Part shown: positions 12,081-55,636 of the stretch, one piece after another
How the letters are laid out: every line of letters begins with the position of its first letter
Position numbering within the stretch: the first letter of the stretch is position 1
Sequence record: PP047755
DNA from: Escherichia phage KEP1
DNA: 64,000 nucleotides
Reading direction: 5' to 3' (one strand)
Made by a program: the position numbers and the translations under genes
The notes under the pieces: generated by a model
Told to the model about the DNA's origin: nothing
Seen by the model: only the letters and a program-made list of their open reading frames with translations
Database searches by the model: none

Positions 12081-12581
12081 TCAAGCACAATTTGCTTTCA
12101 TTACCTTATGGATTCTTTTTTCAGCATCTTCATAAGTTTCTTTAGTAATAAACTTAATTGCTGCAATATTGGCATTGTAGAAGAGTCTGAGCTTAGAGTC
12201 AATCCTTTTTGTCATTACATCGAATTTATGTTGGAGGTTTGCTTCACCATAAACTAGGCCACCTTTCGTGTAGTAGGTTTGGATAATGTAAAAGTCAAAA
12301 AATTCTTTTCCAAAGCTCTCAATATCTTTTTTAACATACTCAGAAGAAGTCTCATAAGTCATCCAATCACTCTCCTTAGTGACTACCTTCTTCCGAGTCT
12401 TACCAGCAACTTTTCTTTTAGTCACACTATTAAGCTGTTTCTTACCCAAATAGTACTGTCCAGTCTTTTTGCAGTACACTAGGTAGACAAAACCAAAGTG
12501 CTTTGCTGGGTCAACTTCACCACATAGTGAAATCCAATGTCCATAAGTTGGACAACTCCCAAAACCTTTAACTTTAATCAT
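12081..12581 (-). CDS. hypothetical protein (weak GIY-YIG-like motif)
   Basis: 166 aa; FVYLVYCKKTGQYYLGKK loosely resembles GIY...YIG; not convincing. Confidence 0.4.
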   Translation of the reverse strand: MIKVKGFGSCPTYGHWISLCGEVDPAKHFGFVYLVYCKKTGQYYLGKKQLNSVTKRKVAGKTRKKVVTKESDWMTYETSSEYVKKDIESFGKEFFDFYIIQTYYTKGGLVYGEANLQHKFDVMTKRIDSKLRLFYNANIAAIKFITKETYEDAEKRIHKVMKANCA

Positions 12582-13102
12582 TCATAAGCTTCTCCGTGAT
12601 TTGTAAACTCTTTATGGAGTTCTTCTCTTTTCTTTTTGACAACTAATTCAGCCTCAGCGATAGAGTCAAATAAACCTAGATGATAGCAAACTTTATTATG
12701 CTTGACTTGTGCAGCCCATCTACCTCTTTGCTTATGGTAATATACACCCTTCACACCAGATTTATTATCTCTTCTTTTGGCTGCATTACAGTTATTGTCT
12801 GACCTACTACACTCTCTCAAATTGTCGAACCAGTTGTCGTGCCTGATACCATTCTTATGGTCAACAAATTTTGGTAGGTATCCTTTCATATACAAGAATG
12901 CCAGTCTGTGTGCTGCATATCTTTTCCCGAAGAGTTTTATGTAGATATAACCACTATGATGTTTAAGACCCGCTACTGAGCCAGCTTTGGCCTTACCTTT
13001 TCTATTAACTAACCAAGTAAAGACCCCTGTTTCGGGGTCATAGTGCAGGTATTCTTTAAGAGTTTGTTGGGTTAACATTTGGTGTCCATCCATACTTATC
13101 AA
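12578..13102 (-). CDS. HNH-type homing endonuclease with AP2-like DNA-binding domain
   Basis: 174 aa; paralogue of the CDS at 22942-23475 (shared HYDPETGVFTWL, HRLAFLY, KNGIRHDN, SGVKGVYY motifs). Confidence 0.75.
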   Translation of the reverse strand: MISMDGHQMLTQQTLKEYLHYDPETGVFTWLVNRKGKAKAGSVAGLKHHSGYIYIKLFGKRYAAHRLAFLYMKGYLPKFVDHKNGIRHDNWFDNLRECSRSDNNCNAAKRRDNKSGVKGVYYHKQRGRWAAQVKHNKVCYHLGLFDSIAEAELVVKKKREELHKEFTNHGEAYE

Positions 13103-19713: not shown

Positions 19714-19970
19714 GTAAGCCTCTTTTAAGTAACTATTAAGTTTTAATCTTTTATCTTAACGTATTCTATACGTTATACTTTAAAGCTTTTTAAAAGCTAT
19801 TAAATAATCTTTTAAGAGTTTTAAAGTATCTGTATAGTTAAACTGTTAAGTAACCTTTTAAGTAAAAACCCACTTCGCAAAGATTAACACCTTGTCAAGT
19901 GCATTGTCAACTTGCTTTTTATAATTTTTTGCAGTAATGTATGTGGTTAATGATTTTAGAGGGAGTAAAA

Positions 19971-22113
19971 ATGGAAAACGTAGATTTTAAAAACTTACAT
20001 TTAGTTGGTGATACAGAAACTGATGGTTTACTCCTTGAGTTCACTAAAGTGCACGTAATGGCTTTCGCAGACTATAAATCTGACGATGAAGAGCCACCTG
20101 TATGGGTCTTTACAGATGAGCCTATCCTCGGTCACAAGTATACCAAGTACATTAAGGGTGGTTTGCGTGAAGGTGTTGAGTTTGCGTTAAAGGCGAAACG
20201 TCTTTGCATCCATAATGGTCTCGGTTATGACTGGTGGGTTTTCAATCACATTGCACCTGATTTATGGAACTTTGATAATCCAAAGTGTAAACCGTGGAGT
20301 AATTTCTTTCAGGATTCTCTTATCCAGTCTCGTGTTCAGTGGATGGATAGGCCAACTCCAAAGGGTTATAAAGGTGCTCATGGCTTGGCTGCATGGGGTG
20401 CTCGTGTTGGTGTTCGTAAACCAGAGATTGAGCATTGGGGTGTATGGAATGCAGAAATCTTCACTCGTGTTGTAGAAGATATTCGTATTAACGCCAAAAC
20501 TAAACGGGCACTTGATAATGAGTATCTCAAGCTTAAGAAGTGTGGCATAGACACTTATGAAACCTATATGCGAGCTAAAGAAACATCTTTCTGGATGAGT
20601 CAACAAGCTATCAATGGTTGGAAAGCTGATAAAGAGCTTATGGAGTTTCATGTAAAGGAGCTTGACAAGTTGACTAATGAGCTTGCTTCAGAGGTTGAAC
20701 CACATCTACCTCCAACTATTAAGACCAAAGGTAAAGTCACTGGAGAAGAATTTGCAAAAGCTTGGAATGAGTATGTTGAAACATTTGGTCATGCAGATGG
20801 ACTGAAAAGAATTACCAAGTATCCTAAGACAAAGTATCGTCAACAGGTGCGTAACGGTGAGATGCAGACATACGAAATCAAGCCATTTGGTAAGCCAACT
20901 ACAAAGATTTTTAACATTGAAAAGAGAAATTGCTATACACCAACCAACTCTGTAACTGGTGAAGAGTACAAGGAAGGTTTTGTAGCAATGAAGGATGCTC
21001 GTGCAATTTGCAATGAGTTGAATGCAAAGATTGGTAAGAAGTGCAAAGACTGGAAGCCAGTAAAAACAGTTAAAACTGTGAAGTACTATAACAGCCATGT
21101 CGTTAACCACTTTGAGCTTGAGTCAAGTCGCTACACAGGTTTGATTGATGCACCATATACACCAATTGAGTTCGAAGTTTCTCGTATGACTCAGGTAGCA
21201 GTTGTTAAAGACTACTTGAAATCAGTTGGTTGGATTCCAGATGACTGGAACTATAAGAAAGACTCAGATGGCCGTCCTGTTAAGGTTTGTCGTTTCAAAG
21301 ACAACAAAAAGAGGATTACTAAGCACCCTAAATGGGATGAGATGGTTGAACGGTGTGGTTTGAGTTATGTTGAACATGAAGGTGTACAGTACATAGAGCA
21401 TAACTGGTCTGTTAAGAAATACACAGATTTGCTTGAACCTTGCTTAATCCGTACTTCACCAAAACTTACTGAATCATCTTATGATACGATTGAAGGTGAG
21501 CTTGGACAGAAGATTGCTAAGTACTATACTTTGATGCACAGACGTAGAACTATTGAGAACTCAAAGGATGATGAAAAAGGTTGGTTGAACCAGATTCGTC
21601 CTGATGGTCGCCTTAGTGCTGGCGCAATGGTGTTTGGTACTTCAACTGGACGTATGACACAATATGGTATTGTAAACGTACCGTCTGGTGCTGCTGTCTA
21701 TGGAGCACCTATGAGGGAGGTGTGGATTTGCGAGGAGGGGACTAATATCGTTTCAGTTGACCAGAACTCTGCACAGCTAGTTCTTCTTTGTAACTTTATG
21801 GGTGACAAAGACTTCACTAAAGCGGTAACTGAGGGTAAAGAGTCAGTAGAGTTCACTAAGCAAGATGACGGTAGATACTATTGCAAGCATCTCGATAAGT
21901 ATCTTAATCCAGAAACTGACAAGTATCTTCGTTATGATGCTGAGAACGACCTCTACGAAGTCTACACAGGGACTGATGCGCATACACTGAACAGTATTTA
22001 CTTTGGTCTGAACAAGGAAGAAGACATTGTTCGTTGTAGGGAGACACAGGATGAGGAACTTCTCCACGAGATTACAAAAGGTCGTAAGAAAGCCAAAAAT
22101 GGCATTTATGCGT
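19971..22113 (+). CDS. DNA polymerase (family A, T7 gp5-like), exon 1 (ORF-track frame 19941-22154 reads through into the intervening sequence)
   Basis: Start at MENVDF after GGGAG RBS; T7 gp5-like motifs HNGLGYDWW, AHGLAAWGARVG, motif A-like VSVDQNSAQL; coding sense ends in motif B at KAKNGIYA. Confidence 0.75.
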
Positions 22114-22381
22114 CAGTGGCGCATGTAAAACGTTGTGAATTGCTGGAAGCCTAAGTCTGTAAAGATATGGTAATCAGCAGCGAAGCCTCTTAAGAGGAAC
22201 GTTCAGAGACTATCGAAAAGCATACTTAACGTATGAACTGAGTAGAGTAGGGTGGTAAGCTAATGACCATTCCCAAGTGCAACGGTAGTATTACTACTAC
22301 GTGATATAGTCCGACACTCCGTAGAAATGCGGAGAAGTTCATAAGAGAACTGGTACACCTTGCGAGTGTATTGACCAGATG
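22114..22381 (+). other. Intervening sequence splitting the DNA polymerase gene; probable self-splicing (group-I-like) intron, boundaries approximate
   Basis: Exon 1 stops inside motif B; exon 2 resumes with LFGAGDEK in another frame; about 270 nt between, with stops in the exon frames; proposed junction follows a T (22113) and the intron ends on a G (22381), giving IYALLFGAGDEK. Confidence 0.5.
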
Positions 22382-22938
22382 TATTGTTCGGTGCAGGTGA
22401 TGAGAAGTTTGCAAAAACTATCAAGGCATCATCTACGGAAGAAGGTGCATTGACTAAACAAACTTACTATATGCGTCTGCCAAAGATTAAGAAGTTACTT
22501 GATAGCTTAGAAGCCGATTTTAAGGCGTCTAAAAAGGCTCTGGAAGAGGTTTTTGGGAAGAATTCTTCAATTGCTAAAGGTGGTTATATCAGGGTCGCTG
22601 GAGCATGGATATGGTGCAAATCTCCACATAAACTACTGAACTACCTCCTGATGAGTTCGGAAGCACAGATTCAGAATGAGGCCATCAACCTAGCAGCAAG
22701 AAAAGCCTGTGAAGATGGCCTGACAAAACTGAATGCTCGAAAACCAGCTATCGGAGCAAGGTTACTTCTGGCATATCACGATGAAAATAGTTGGGAATGT
22801 CCAGAGGGTATGACACATGATATGAAAGCAATTGCTGACTGGATGTATGGACAAGCTTCAAAAAACTTAGGTTTGAGGAAAGAAACACTTGTAACTGGTA
22901 CAGCAAAGGTTGGTAAGAGCTGGTATGAGGTACATTGA
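22382..22938 (+). CDS. DNA polymerase (family A), exon 2 / C-terminal part (motif B remainder and motif C)
   Basis: ORF track 22384-22938 starts at a TTG; LFGAGDEKFAKTI continues motif B; LLAYHDENSWECPEG matches the Pol A motif C HDE. Confidence 0.7.
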
Positions 22939-22941
22939 TTA

Positions 22942-23475
22942 ATGGATTTAATTTTACAAAAACGTTTAAAGGAGCTGCTGCACTATGACCCCGAAACAGG
23001 GGTCTTTACTTGGCTTCGTAGAGAAGGTAAATCAAGAGCTGTTAGTGTTTTTAACAGTAATTATGCAGGAAAGGTGGCAGGTAATATCCAGACTGATTCA
23101 AGTGGTCATAAACAGATTAGTATCTATTTTGACAAGAAAGCACATAAAGCACACAGACTCGCATGGCTTTACGTGTATGGCAAGATGCCAAAAGGTATCA
23201 TTGACCATATCAACGGAGACTCACTTGACAACAGGATTGTAAACTTAAGGGAAGCAGATGACTTTCAAAGTGCTTGGAATAAAGGTAAGCTAGTCACCAA
23301 TAAATCTGGGTACAAGGGTGTAAGTCTTAAGAAGAAGTCTGGTAAGTGGGTCGCACAGATAAGTTATAGAGGTAAGAAGATGTTTTTAGGTTATCATGAC
23401 ACACCTGAAGAAGCCCATAAAGCTTACTGTAAAGCTGCTGTGAAACTCCACGGAGAGTTTGCAAAACTAAGTTGA
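22942..23475 (+). CDS. HNH-type homing endonuclease with AP2-like domain (free-standing, immediately downstream of the DNA polymerase)
   Basis: 177 aa; paralogue of 12578-13102; His/Asn pattern DHINGDSLDNRIVNLRE. Confidence 0.75.
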   Translation: MDLILQKRLKELLHYDPETGVFTWLRREGKSRAVSVFNSNYAGKVAGNIQTDSSGHKQISIYFDKKAHKAHRLAWLYVYGKMPKGIIDHINGDSLDNRIVNLREADDFQSAWNKGKLVTNKSGYKGVSLKKKSGKWVAQISYRGKKMFLGYHDTPEEAHKAYCKAAVKLHGEFAKLS

Positions 23476-23526
23476 CAAGGTGCTCATGGAAGAGTACCTT
23501 ATACAATATCTTATATAGGAGGGCTT

Positions 23527-23736
23527 ATGAGCCACCGTGGAAGAACCCATGCAGCAATGATGAAAGGTGCTTCAAAGGAAACTATCAAGAATCGTAAGCA
23601 GAAGTTGTTTGAGAGAATAAACAGGTTGATTGACAATTCATCTCTTTCAGGTTCTGAGAAGGTTTTCTTGAAAGGTAATCTGAAAAGCATTGCACAAGAA
23701 CTTGTAGATATTGAATATTGGAGACATCAAAAATGA
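23527..23736 (+). CDS. hypothetical protein
   Basis: 69-aa ORF. Confidence 0.45.
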   Translation: MSHRGRTHAAMMKGASKETIKNRKQKLFERINRLIDNSSLSGSEKVFLKGNLKSIAQELVDIEYWRHQK

Positions 23737-54273: not shown

Positions 54274-54350
54274 TGGAGAATCCGAAGGGACTCGAACCCT
54301 TATAAACCTGTTTTGCAGACAGGCACATAGCCATTTCTGTCACGGATTCA
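54274..54350 (-). tRNA. tRNA-Cys (anticodon GCA), boundaries +/-3 nt
   Basis: Cloverleaf by eye: T-arm rc AAGGG-ACTCGAA-CCCTT, anticodon stem CCTGT/ACAGG, loop CUGCAAA, 7-bp acceptor, CCA encoded. Confidence 0.65.
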
Positions 54351-54353
54351 AAT

Positions 54354-54443
54354 TGGAGGAAGATACCAGACTTGAACTGGTACACCGATTTCTCAGCTAC
54401 TGGCAGTTTAGCAAACTGCTCCCTTACCTTTTAGGGTTAATCT
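54354..54443 (-). tRNA. tRNA-Ser (anticodon GCU), type II, about 90 nt
   Basis: Acceptor GGAAGAT/ATCTTCC, anticodon stem GCAGT/ACTGC, loop UUGCUAA, long variable arm, CCA encoded. Confidence 0.65.
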
Positions 54444-54448
54444 TCCAT

Positions 54449-55246
54449 TTATTTCTGTAATGCGTTCTTCATTTCTGGTGTTGCAATAGTGTCAATTACA
54501 CCAGTTTTACAAGCATCATCAAACCAGTCTGGTAAGATACCTGCTAAGAACCCATTGATATTCGTTTTAAGGTACTCTGCAATAAGGGCAGCTTCTTCTT
54601 CAATCATCTGCACAACTTCATCTGCATAAGCTGTAATCTTTGAGATACCTTCATTAATCTTACTAACAGCTTGGTTAGCTAAATCAGAAATAGTATCAAG
54701 ACCTTTATCAATAGCATCCTGTAAGTCACTTAATACATCATTAACACCGTCTAGTGCACTGTTAATCGTATCAATAGCTTTTTGACCATACTCTGTAGCA
54801 ACACCCATAATACCACTAAATGGTGTACAACCGACTTGCTCTCCTGCTGCACCCATAACATTGGAATATCCTTTTGCTACCTGCATACGTGATGAAAACT
54901 CATCAATGGACTTTTGACCGTAATCTGTCAGTGTCTTAGTAGTTGATGTAGTGCTTGTCAGACTCGTTGTAAAGCTGTTAAGCAGAACTGTTGTAAGTCC
55001 AGCAGCAATAAGCTTATCCTTTATTGTAGGGTCTGTTACAGAGCTAATAGAGCTTACAAGTGATGTAGAGGCAGCTACGGTTCCACCGAGAACTGCTGCA
55101 CCAGTAATAAGGGGATTAGAAAACCCTCTACCGGTTTTTAAGAGATTAAAAATCTCCTTACCTTGTTCTGTCATCTCTTTCATTAAGCACCTTTGAAATT
55201 GGTAGTCCAGTGGGATTTGAACCCTCTTCTCATGTTTTTCAGACAC
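54449..55246 (-). CDS. hypothetical protein inside tRNA cluster (Thr/Ser-rich, hydrophobic segment)
   Basis: 265-aa ORF between tRNA genes, co-oriented; ORF-track start may overlap the tRNA-Phe 3' end. Confidence 0.5.
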   Translation of the reverse strand: MSEKHEKRVQIPLDYQFQRCLMKEMTEQGKEIFNLLKTGRGFSNPLITGAAVLGGTVAASTSLVSSISSVTDPTIKDKLIAAGLTTVLLNSFTTSLTSTTSTTKTLTDYGQKSIDEFSSRMQVAKGYSNVMGAAGEQVGCTPFSGIMGVATEYGQKAIDTINSALDGVNDVLSDLQDAIDKGLDTISDLANQAVSKINEGISKITAYADEVVQMIEEEAALIAEYLKTNINGFLAGILPDWFDDACKTGVIDTIATPEMKNALQK

Positions 55247-55276
55247 GCGCTTTAACCATATAAGCTACTTGGACTA
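55200..55276 (-). tRNA. tRNA-Phe (anticodon GAA)
   Basis: Acceptor TAGTCCA/TGGACTA, anticodon stem CGTGT/ACATG, loop CUGAAAA. Confidence 0.6.
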
Positions 55277-55281
55277 TAAAT

Positions 55282-55357
55282 TGGGGTGACCTACGGGATT
55301 TGAACCCGTATAGACCATGTTCACAGCATGGGTCATTACCATTTATGATAAGGCCAC
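55282..55357 (-). tRNA. tRNA-His (anticodon GUG)
   Basis: T-arm ACGGG-ATTTGAA-CCCGT (rc), anticodon stem CCATG/CATGG, loop CUGUGAA. Confidence 0.6.
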
Positions 55358-55388
55358 ATTTAAGGACTCTCGTAAGAACCCTTAGAAG

Positions 55389-55464
55389 TGGCAGCGGCAT
55401 AAGGATTTGAACCTTAATAAGACAGCTTCAGAGACTGCTGCATTGCCAGTTATGCTATACCGCT
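55389..55464 (-). tRNA. tRNA-Gln (anticodon CUG), tentative
   Basis: Acceptor and T-arm clear; anticodon loop CUCUGAA with G-U containing stem. Confidence 0.45.
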
Positions 55465-55469
55465 AAATT

Positions 55470-55558
55470 TGGTACTCCATATCGGATTCGAACCGATACA
55501 TAACACAGATTTTAAGTCTGGCCTCTCTGCCAATTGGAGTAATGGAGCATTGGCGGGG
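55470..55558 (-). tRNA. tRNA-Leu (anticodon UAA), type II, about 86 nt
   Basis: T-arm ATCGG-ATTCGAA-CCGAT (rc), anticodon loop CUUAAAA, long variable arm. Confidence 0.55.
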
Positions 55559-55560
55559 GA

Positions 55561-55636
55561 TGTTGGAATTGAACCAACTTCTTCGATTTCAAAGACCGAG
55601 GTTTTAACCTTGTAAACTAATCCCCTTTAAATCTTT
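55561..55636 (-). tRNA. tRNA-Gln (anticodon UUG)
   Basis: T-arm GTTGG-AATTGAA-CCAAC (rc), anticodon stem TCGGT/ATCGA, loop CUUUGAA. Confidence 0.55.

Follow-up and report, generated by a model that had tools for sequence, protein, structure and literature searches.

[quoted passage not shown]

The DNA polymerase gene of Escherichia phage KEP1 (sequence record PP047755) is split by an intron and is followed by a free-standing gene of the HNH-AP2 homing endonuclease family (Table 1). The 64,000-nucleotide stretch that was analysed, referred to here as the window, belongs to Felixounavirus. Exon 1 stops within motif B (...RKKAKNGIYA plus the first base of a Leu codon), and its raw open reading frame continues into the intron as far as a stop codon at 22152–22154. 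Joining 19941–22113 to 22382–22938 yields a single open reading frame that aligns without gaps and at 99.3% identity with the 906-residue polymerase of phage bumzen, and comparison with the uninterrupted gene of that phage was used to set the intron boundaries (exon 1 end, ...TATGCGT; intron end, ...CCAGATG). The two Pfam DNA_pol_A matches lie below threshold (16.9 and 25.2 bits; gathering score 34.3); together with RKKAKNGIYALLFGAGDEKF in motif B and with the way relatives are annotated, these weak matches tentatively suggest a family-A enzyme. A preliminary description of this DNA had spoken of a T7-type polymerase; the polymerase gene stands, but the enzyme is better labelled a family-A polymerase from a Felix O1-like myovirus. 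No introns were found in the genome of Felix O1 itself by the original paper on that phage. Two 'DNA polymerase' genes are listed in the records of most relatives, and the polymerase belongs in such records as a single spliced gene.

Table 1. Features of the polymerase locus and of the paralogous endonuclease locus in the window.
Feature	Position	Strand	Basis or remarks
SegE-like GIY-YIG endonuclease gene adjoining the paralogue	12081..12581	-	Pfam PF19835, 94 bits
Paralogous free-standing HNH-AP2 gene, 174 aa	12578..13102	-	Pfam HNH_3 + AP2
DNA polymerase (putative family A), exon 1	19941..22113	+	ORF list; alignment to intron-less bumzen polymerase; weak PF00476 match
Group I intron, 268 nt, minimal form without ORF	22114..22381	+	Rfam RF00028; bumzen comparison
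DNA polymerase, exon 2	22382..22938	+	LLFGAGDEKF...WYEVH; stop TGA 22936-22938; PF00476 match to the model's C-terminal part
Free-standing HNH-AP2 homing endonuclease gene, allele 'HNH-1', 177 aa, intact	22942..23475	+	Pfam HNH_3, AP2
GC-rich hairpin GACCCCGAAACAGGGGTC, perfect 6-bp stem (GACCCC-GAAACA-GGGGTC, then TTTACTT)	22987..23004	+	HNH codons DPETGV
Conserved intergenic spacer (TTGACAAGGTGCTCATGG...TATAGGAGG)	23472..23526	+	Right-hand boundary of HNH insertion

The segment 22114–22381 has the properties of a group I intron, including the covariance score (RF00028 match at 22051–22334, 64.2 bits, E = 5.5e-14, gathering score 50), the wobble pair U22113·G22119 at the 5′ splice site together with the terminal intron G (G22381), the precise restoration of the reading frame and compensatory base changes. 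In P1, exon AUGCGU (22108–22113) pairs with intron GCGCAU (22119–22124). RNAalifold, applied to seven highly similar variants, recovered P1 and only two pairs changed on both sides, C-G/U-A in P6 and U-A/C-G in the hairpin at 22284–22301. The P6 hairpin is short, 14 nt (GCCTCTTAAGAGGA, 22185–22198), and lies at the place where relatives have an Endonuclease VII gene; the KEP1 intron carries this hairpin instead of an Endonuclease_7 reading frame. The ORF-less intron of the preliminary description, with its start at 22114, is therefore upheld. The polymerase is essential and carriers of the intron are viable isolates, which suggests that the intron is self-splicing.

Among the relatives of KEP1, about 260 in the phage collection, the intron, where present, occupies the identical site and has one of three lengths: 268 nt, 311 nt, or about 800 nt when P6 holds an Endonuclease VII-type gene. 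The ribozyme parts of the three forms are 97–100% identical, while the flanking exons are merely 74–82% identical. The intron reading frame encodes a 161-residue Endonuclease_7 protein (69 bits) and is present in 41 relatives; an HNH-AP2 gene within the intron was found in no relative. The 311-nt form corresponds to the ORF form with a deletion between the repeats CTAAAGCAAA, and is a scar left by deletion of the Endonuclease VII-type gene. The 268-nt form could be ancestral, never having held the reading frame, instead of a product of loss. It occurs with short flanking tracts in at least three exon backgrounds (those of the window and of loci L021 and L025) and thus has moved since arising. 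The Endonuclease VII of phages JH2, EC6 and FSL SP-010 has been listed as intron-encoded (Fang et al., 2018; PMC6083498), and group I introns with an Endonuclease VII motif are also found in the polymerase genes of Yersinia phage Berlin and of LUZ24 (PMC6083498). Outside P6 the KEP1 ribozyme is 97–100% identical to the introns of EC6 and FSL SP-010 and belongs to the same lineage; between Felixounavirus and Berlin, Endonuclease VII shows 50% identity. Unlike the introns of EC6, FSL SP-010 and Berlin, the KEP1 copy has no reading frame; moreover, the Berlin intron lies three codons upstream of the KEP1 site (AKTF/IYG against IYA/LLF, the slash marking the insertion point) and, unlike in KEP1, no HNH gene follows downstream. 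Scans of metagenomes and viral contigs with a 32-nt piece of the intron were dropped as an independent population sample because the 32-mer is conserved ribozyme core; the metagenome matches turned out to be group I introns unrelated to this one, located in different genes of phages with high GC content.

The HNH-AP2 gene was correctly placed 4 nt past exon 2 in the preliminary description, since the polymerase stop ends at 22938 and the ATG begins at the fourth base after it. Its product, HNH-1, scores 54.5 bits with HNH_3 and 43.8 bits with AP2, and its AP2 part resembles plant AP2/ERF structures. In an alignment with sister alleles, the catalytic residues D88-H89, N97, N101 and N113 are invariant across six homologues. 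Comparison of empty and filled sites places the insertion precisely at the junction of the polymerase stop codon with the conserved spacer, which directly follows the polymerase stop in HNH-free relatives and the HNH stop in KEP1, where the TGA shares bases with the start of the spacer. In relatives the post-polymerase site is either empty or filled by an HNH allele; these alleles number at least four, are diverged and each have both HNH_3 and AP2. The last polymerase codons carry HNH-linked changes (cacTAA versus catTGA). HNH-2 is 96–97% identical between genomes with exon 2 at 72–80%, and HNH-2 and HNH-1b are 95–97% identical across backbones that are 72–80% identical. The HNH-AP2 genes of this site thus combine presence or absence at the site with signs of horizontal transfer, the latter seen for HNH-2 and HNH-1b; all carriers of HNH-1 itself are of one backbone type. 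Relatives of the HNH-AP2 family occur in about 3,000 phage records, T7 gene 3.8 among them, and the family is so common that homology is uninformative on the cleavage target. A promoter is annotated at the spacer in the record of one relative (H382); a consensus scan for a promoter at 23472–23526 flagged nothing.

The intron is present in 95 records, 41 of which have the reading frame. The ORF-bearing intron occurs in 26 HNH-free and 15 HNH-positive records, the ORF-less intron in about 53 HNH-positive and no HNH-free records, and the HNH gene without the intron in about 93, with neither element in a further 70. HNH genes are found in about 62% of the records, leaving 96 HNH-free genomes. Relatives thus give a divided answer on whether the two elements segregate independently, as the preliminary description had proposed to ask: they also occur apart (about 93 and 26 records), but not always, because all of the roughly 53 ORF-less introns are accompanied by HNH. 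The HNH status of these 53 was partly derived from the distance between matched pieces, and the gene was directly confirmed in nine loci and in the rows of a spread sample. A search with two chimeric queries found no ORF-less intron with an empty HNH site among about 54 ORF-less records, and of 27 rows that run from intron to spacer with no HNH in between, all but one deletion record have the ORF form. GEC_vB_BS (MW006475) was considered as an ORF-less intron with an empty site and rejected, as it has lost most of exon 2 and the HNH gene but retains an HNH 3′ remnant; it is treated as an assembly artefact or a defective genome. A naive Fisher test of the association between ORF-less intron and HNH gave p = 6e-13 and was discarded because the genomes are related and shared ancestry inflates the association. 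The ORF-less lineages seen number only two (268 and 311 nt) and the different combinations of intron and HNH about five, for which a conservative estimate of the probability of a chance association is about 0.1–0.35.

Several relationships between the intron and the HNH gene have to be considered. The HNH gene may assist the spread of the intron, either by cutting where the intron inserts or through a break close to the 3′ end of the polymerase gene that leads to co-conversion. The geometry of collaborative homing, an ORF-less polymerase intron with a neighbouring free-standing HNH gene, is present. Collaborative homing is known from the T7-like phages T3, PhiI and W31 (Bonocora & Shub, 2009) and from psbA of cyanophage S-PM2 (Zeng et al., 2009), as outlined in the reviews PMC3984707, PMC2988022 and PMC10448857. 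To the extent of these outlines, KEP1 shares with both systems a free-standing endonuclease gene immediately 3′ of the intron-bearing gene and the occurrence of the endonuclease without the intron in related genomes; unlike them, KEP1 is a Felix O1-like myovirus, the Felixounavirus intron-borne endonuclease is of the Endonuclease VII type and not HNH, competition for the Felixounavirus site involves at least four HNH alleles, and comparisons of sister alleles argue against cleavage at the insertion site. In the strict form of collaborative homing, HNH-1 would cut intron-less alleles at or next to the insertion site, the intron would protect its own genome, and repair from the donor would copy intron, exon 2 and HNH gene jointly. 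We regard this as improbable, even though the geometry equals that of T3/PhiI as summarised in the reviews, the ORF-less intron is never observed without HNH, and all HNH-1 genomes have one exon-2 type, as if the whole block moved. HNH-1 proper is found solely with the 268-nt intron or with a 'type A' insertion-site allele (TACGCCC/TGTTATT), which could be resistant; however, type A may merely mark a Salmonella-type backbone, and HNH-1 lacks the intron in about ten records. Intron-less genomes with HNH-2, HNH-3 or HNH-1b have the same insertion-site sequence (±36 nt) as HNH-free genomes; this speaks against cutting of the site by these sister alleles, and the sister alleles have also been transferred without exon 2. 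In addition, some HNH nickases tolerate self-cutting, and the immunity argument works both ways. Type A differs from the intron-linked flanks by 11 synonymous changes in 33 nt; no type A allele in an HNH-free genome was found among the relatives. The 11 synonymous differences between the window and bumzen were rejected as proof of selection for nuclease resistance because the intron-linked flank is a short foreign tract near the type B allele, because P1 pairing requires U at position −1, which explains the intron-linked upstream exon differences, and because types A and B diverge by about 24%, just as much as the background. The position of tract boundaries at the insertion site was likewise not accepted as proving a break, since the intron core, being near-identical, offers a crossover point of its own to genomes that have diverged. 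That the ORF-less intron persists and moves solely with an HNH-AP2 gene downstream, with HNH-1 perhaps cutting the insertion site and type A resistant, is a proposal that we hold to be rather doubtful; if it is true, about 260 sequenced genomes contain every stage of endonuclease-gene turnover at a single locus, and a cut by HNH-1 at the insertion site would make this natural collaborative homing on a population scale in a phage family new to the process, where one intron is the object of competition between two unrelated families of nucleases.

A cut at a distance from the intron is the other route to assistance. Trans homing of the defunct I-TevIII/nrdB intron by T4 mobE has been demonstrated by crosses (Wilson & Edgell, 2009; PMC2790892), and KEP1 resembles that system in having an intron without a working endonuclease beside a free-standing gene of the HNH family, a candidate driver of co-conversion. 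HNH would here cut HNH-free genomes close to where it inserts, around the 3′ end of the polymerase gene and the spacer, and resection over at least 560 bp would carry exon 2 and the ORF-less intron along, as with MobE and the defunct nrdB intron. The empty site is a sharp junction that is broken by the insertion, the changes in the last polymerase codons are HNH-linked, the 560 bp fall inside the T4 co-conversion range of up to about 2 kb (PMC2790892), and exon 2 and the HNH gene are uniformly 97–100% identical among HNH-1 genomes. Against this stand the HNH-linked polymerase tracts, usually shorter than 50 nt, the roughly 93 HNH-positive genomes that lack the intron, and the mosaics, which, for a case read from sequence rather than from crosses, show the elements often inherited separately. 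The breaks in these mosaics fall at the intron and at the HNH gene. Loci L021 and L023 both have the 268-nt intron and share an HNH gene at 99.6% identity, and the first 280 nt of their exon 2 are 99.6% identical against 74.7% for the last 277 nt; the tract from intron to HNH is also not co-inherited between L005 and the other HNH-2 genomes. Such mosaics indicate that the HNH alleles form modules that are transferred separately from the intron, and co-conversion of this kind seems unlikely. Coincidence, in which the ORF-less intron would be an immobile remnant and HNH an unrelated neighbour that co-occurs through ancestry alone, draws on the small number of ORF-less lineages, on the commonness of HNH genes, which are probably seldom lost since alleles replace one another, and on a mixing of backbones that may be restricted by host range. 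It is nevertheless very improbable, given that the 268-nt form has moved between exon backgrounds and that no copy of it was found in any of the 96 HNH-free genomes.

Endonuclease-gene turnover is the reading that we favour, with some reserve: the intron and the HNH gene are probably two separate selfish elements at a known type of hot spot, and the pairing of an ORF-less intron with HNH would reflect the turnover of endonuclease genes. The data fit this better than the status of an intermediate in mobile-intron formation, under which the preliminary description had placed the configuration. The arrangement does match the published T3/PhiI case, but the intermediate status is disfavoured, as the same intron in relatives is already a complete mobile intron with an Endonuclease VII-type gene unrelated to HNH, as intron and HNH also exist separately in the numbers given above, and as sister alleles coexist with an insertion site like that of HNH-free genomes. 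The hot spot would lie within the 3′-terminal third of the phage gene for DNA polymerase, an essential enzyme. The group I intron, which presumably must be spliced from the mRNA for polymerase to be produced, would persist because only its precise removal is tolerated, and the free-standing HNH-AP2 gene would sit between polymerase stop and spacer. Each element would spread by itself between co-infecting phages through gene conversion, whether induced by a break or driven by homology, that takes along short flanking tracts, and the highly conserved intron core and the HNH 3′ end with the spacer would also serve as crossover points between diverged genomes. With HNH 560 bp away, the Endonuclease VII gene of the intron may have been lost or may never have been needed. 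For such loci, Barth et al. (2023; PMC10448857) hypothesised a turnover route for endonuclease genes in a different family of phages. All stages proposed in that scheme appear within this one genus, namely the intron with its own gene, the same with a free-standing HNH, a scar from deletion of the intronic gene, and the minimal intron with HNH; nuclease genes are found at boundaries of genetic exchange in that study, as mosaic breaks are here at the intron and the HNH gene. In contrast to the scheme, the order of the stages in Felixounavirus is read from a population snapshot. The gain and loss of endonuclease genes by mobile introns have been documented in few phage examples. Felixounavirus is a genus with many sequenced and easily grown isolates whose states comprise intron with own nuclease gene, the same plus HNH, scar, minimal intron plus HNH, HNH alone and neither.

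The paralogue reported between replication genes in the preliminary description is confirmed as an HNH_3 and AP2 protein that is 42% identical to HNH-1 (E = 1e-34). It is flanked by a 5′-3′ exonuclease gene and by the SegE-like GIY-YIG gene, which is often wrongly labelled 'NAD synthetase' in relatives. The paralogue occurs in about 64 of 281 related records and is missing from most, including many with the intron and HNH-1; it is an unrelated, independently variable insertion with respect to the intron/HNH-1 locus. The N-terminal DNA stretch said to be shared by the two genes proved to be a perfect match of 36/36 nt (22978–23013 on the plus strand against 13048–13013 on the minus strand), outside which their DNA similarity is almost nil. 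The core of this stretch is the GC-rich hairpin, the sole terminator-like site within 21900–23700. Its stem is kept across all HNH alleles, and the exact motif is found almost exclusively on contigs of Felixounavirus size.

Sequence comparison matches the window region to more than 250 Felix O1-like phages, phage L27 being the best match (97% identity). Felixounavirus comprises myoviruses of about 86 kb that infect Escherichia and Salmonella, and a tRNA block on the minus strand is typical of Felix O1-like phages. The polymerase, initially described as T7-type, instead belongs to family A and comes from a Felix O1-like myovirus, not from a T7-family phage; its matches to Pfam DNA_pol_A are sub-threshold.

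Features of the window discussed in the text
Feature	Coordinates	Strand	Remarks
Group I intron	22114-22381	+	268 nt; exact limits from alignment to the bumzen polymerase gene
HNH-AP2 endonuclease gene	22942-23475	+	HNH_3 and AP2 domains; catalytic residues conserved
HNH-AP2 paralogue	12578-13102	-	same HNH_3 and AP2 domains; 42% identity to the polymerase-side gene
SegE-like GIY-YIG endonuclease gene	12081-12581	-	adjoins the paralogue; Pfam PF19835, 94 bits
tRNA block	54277-59864	-	24 tRNA genes

The intron placed in the polymerase gene by the preliminary description is borne out by a match to the Rfam group I intron model at 22051-22334 (64.2 bits, threshold 50), by its exact removal against the uninterrupted polymerase gene of the relative bumzen (906 aa) and by its predicted pairing. 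The joined exons form a single gapless reading frame 99.3% identical to the bumzen protein, and the junction falls in polymerase motif B (RKKAKNGIYA/LLFGAGDEKF, break after IYA). Exon 1 ends in TATGCGT, the intron ends in CCAGATG and exon 2 begins TATTGTTC. In an RNAalifold prediction from seven natural variants, exon AUGCGU pairs with intron GCGCAU to form P1, the U.G pair expected at the splice site included, and compensatory changes are seen at two base pairs of the intron.

The intron alone, used as a query, retrieves about 95 related records that contain it, and alignment of 12 copies distinguishes three forms at an identical insertion site. That of the window (268 nt) has a short P6 hairpin, GCCTCTTAAGAGG; in the second (780-805 nt) P6 is lengthened by a 12-bp stem and bears an ORF of 161 aa in which Pfam recognises Endonuclease_7 (69 bits; 41 records); the third (310/311 nt) retains the extended P6 stem and has lost the ORF, the deletion endpoints being direct repeats, CTAAAGCAAA, located upstream of the ribosome-binding site and at the ORF 3' end. 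In VpaE1 the ORF is disrupted by a 22-nt deletion. Beyond P6 all copies of the ribozyme agree at 97-100%, whereas in these genomes the exons on either side reach only 74-82% identity; it follows that the intron has recently moved by horizontal transfer, along with flanking tracts some 30 nt long. The Endonuclease VII ORF exists as two alleles with a mutual DNA identity of only about 76% (loci L018, 3109-3594, and L031, 1613-2098), yet the enclosing ribozymes are 97-100% identical; by turnover or divergence, the nuclease gene apparently changes much more rapidly than its carrier intron. Fang et al. (2018; PMC6083498) had already catalogued Endonuclease VII of JH2, EC6 and FSL SP-010 as intron-encoded. 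A related polymerase intron in the T7-like Yersinia phage Berlin, with an Endonuclease VII 50% identical, is inserted three codons upstream of the Felixounavirus site.

The HNH-AP2 gene reported just past the polymerase likewise holds up in its domains, catalytic residues and position, starting at the fourth base past the polymerase stop codon. In HNH-free relatives this stop codon is followed by six bases and then by a conserved spacer, TTGACAAGGTGCTCATGG...; the window gene lies exactly between stop and spacer, its own stop codon overlapping the spacer start. The HNH-AP2 family is known from about 3,000 phage records, and at least four diverged alleles, all with HNH_3 and AP2 domains, are found at this site (46-53% identity to the window protein). 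We designate the window allele HNH-1 (with an 84% identical variant, HNH-1b) and further alleles HNH-2, HNH-3 and HNH-4, the last carried by Felix O1 itself, for which the genome paper gives zero introns and six HNH genes. Since all alleles share the final 25 residues, DTPEEAHKAYCEAAIKLHGEFAKLS, and the final polymerase codons cat TGA, not cac TAA, allele replacement seems to occur via crossovers in these short flanks. Genomes with exon 2 only 72-80% identical share HNH-2 at 96-97% identity, and HNH-2 moves without the sequence lying between it and the intron. The start of exon 2 (22399-22417, GAGAAGTTTGCAAAAACTA) agrees with the HNH 3' end (23452-23468, GAGAGTTTGCAAAACTA) at 17 of 19 positions, a resemblance that is probably due to chance (E 0.63).

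The intron with the Endonuclease VII ORF occurs in 26 HNH-free records and in 15 with an HNH gene, the ORF-less intron with an HNH gene in about 53, an HNH gene without intron in about 93 (counted by difference) and neither element in 70. No genuine ORF-less intron without an HNH gene was found among the approximately 95 intron records using a chimeric query of the intron joined to the spacer, in which separation by exon 2 alone was read as HNH-free: 26 of the 27 rows with only exon 2 in between were of the ORF-bearing form. The 27th, GEC_vB_BS, was rejected, most of exon 2 and of the HNH gene being deleted and the HNH 3' end kept; it is probably an artefact (assembly collapse) or a defective genome. 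In this Salmonella phage (MW006475.1; L045, 2465-2930) a 311-nt intron is followed by only some 30 nt of exon 2, to which roughly the final 70 nt of an HNH gene are joined, a fusion that would delete the polymerase C-terminus; the deletion begins inside the exon-2 copy of the 17/19 repeat. MG969407, an earlier record for a phage of similar name, has an ORF-bearing intron and an HNH gene. ORF-less introns are found beside HNH-1, HNH-1b, HNH-2, HNH-3 and HNH-4 among the loci fetched. The association of the ORF-less intron with an HNH neighbour (naive Fisher p = 6e-13) is only suggestive, because the genomes are related and include only two ORF-less lineages.

In its gene arrangement the locus looks like collaborative homing, and to that extent the preliminary description stands; its reading of the locus as an intermediate in mobile-intron formation is less well supported. 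The complete mobile form of the intron carries another nuclease, a deletion scar records the loss of the intron nuclease gene and the HNH alleles act like ordinary homing endonuclease genes of the free-standing type, so that turnover fits better. A turnover route for such loci has been put forward by Barth et al. (2023; PMC10448857). We regard turnover with independent mobility of both elements as the probable history; two selfish elements, independent of each other, occupy a hot spot of known type.

The defining step of collaborative homing is HNH cleavage of the intron insertion site, for which the indirect evidence is mixed. Against it, three alleles, HNH-2, HNH-3 and HNH-1b, are carried by genomes without the intron whose insertion site, type B (TATGCAC/TGCTGTT), equals that of HNH-free genomes over +-36 nt, and HNH-2 is found alongside every insertion-site state. 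HNH-1, for its part, may cut at the site: it occurs only with the 268-nt intron or with the type A insertion site (TACGCCC/TGTTATT). Type A is absent from all 70 intron-less, HNH-free records and shows 11 synonymous differences in 33 nt from the intron-linked flanks; however, it differs from type B no more than the two backbones diverge elsewhere, and the intron-linked changes directly upstream of the splice site are required for P1. A mosaic between loci L021 and L023 also speaks against cleavage: exon 2 is 99.6% identical over its first 280 nt, which adjoin the 268-nt intron common to both, and 74.7% over its last 277 nt, after which the HNH gene is again 99.6% identical, and this marks intron and HNH gene as separate modules. 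The near-identical intron core is itself a crossover point, so tract borders at the insertion site are no proof of a break there. In our judgement strict collaborative homing by HNH-1 is improbable, and so is trans homing by co-conversion.

The paralogue and its common DNA stretch were also correctly described: 36 consecutive bases are identical (22978-23013, plus strand; 13013-13048, minus strand), outside which the two HNH-AP2 genes have almost no DNA similarity. About 64 of 281 related records carry the paralogue; most lack it, among them many with the intron and HNH-1. It is a separate insertion that shows no visible connection with the polymerase locus. The adjoining SegE-like gene, named 'NAD synthetase' in many related records, is, unlike the paralogue, found in nearly all relatives. 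The 36-base stretch contains a perfect GC-rich hairpin (GACCCC-GAAACA-GGGGTC, then TTTACTT), the sole terminator-like site within 21900-23700, and its exact motif is almost confined to Felixounavirus-sized contigs. Its stem DNA is preserved, synonymous positions included, in each of the four diverged HNH alleles that relatives carry (Felix O1 deviates in the loop only), which points to a function of the DNA or RNA itself, possibly as an endonuclease-limiting attenuator or a site of gene conversion between paralogues.

The intron family, the HNH-AP2 family and the gene arrangement are all of known kinds. In the literature on the genus we found no paper on the ORF-less form with an HNH neighbour or on the population pattern; one paper names 'two introns' without detail, and one GenBank record gives the polymerase as a joined gene. 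Two high-GC environmental phage contigs (L041, 1552-2279; L044, 2366-3261) have a pair of group I introns each, a few hundred bases from one another and apparently both in a capsid-like gene, and these introns have a 32-nt ribozyme-core sequence exactly in common with the window intron.
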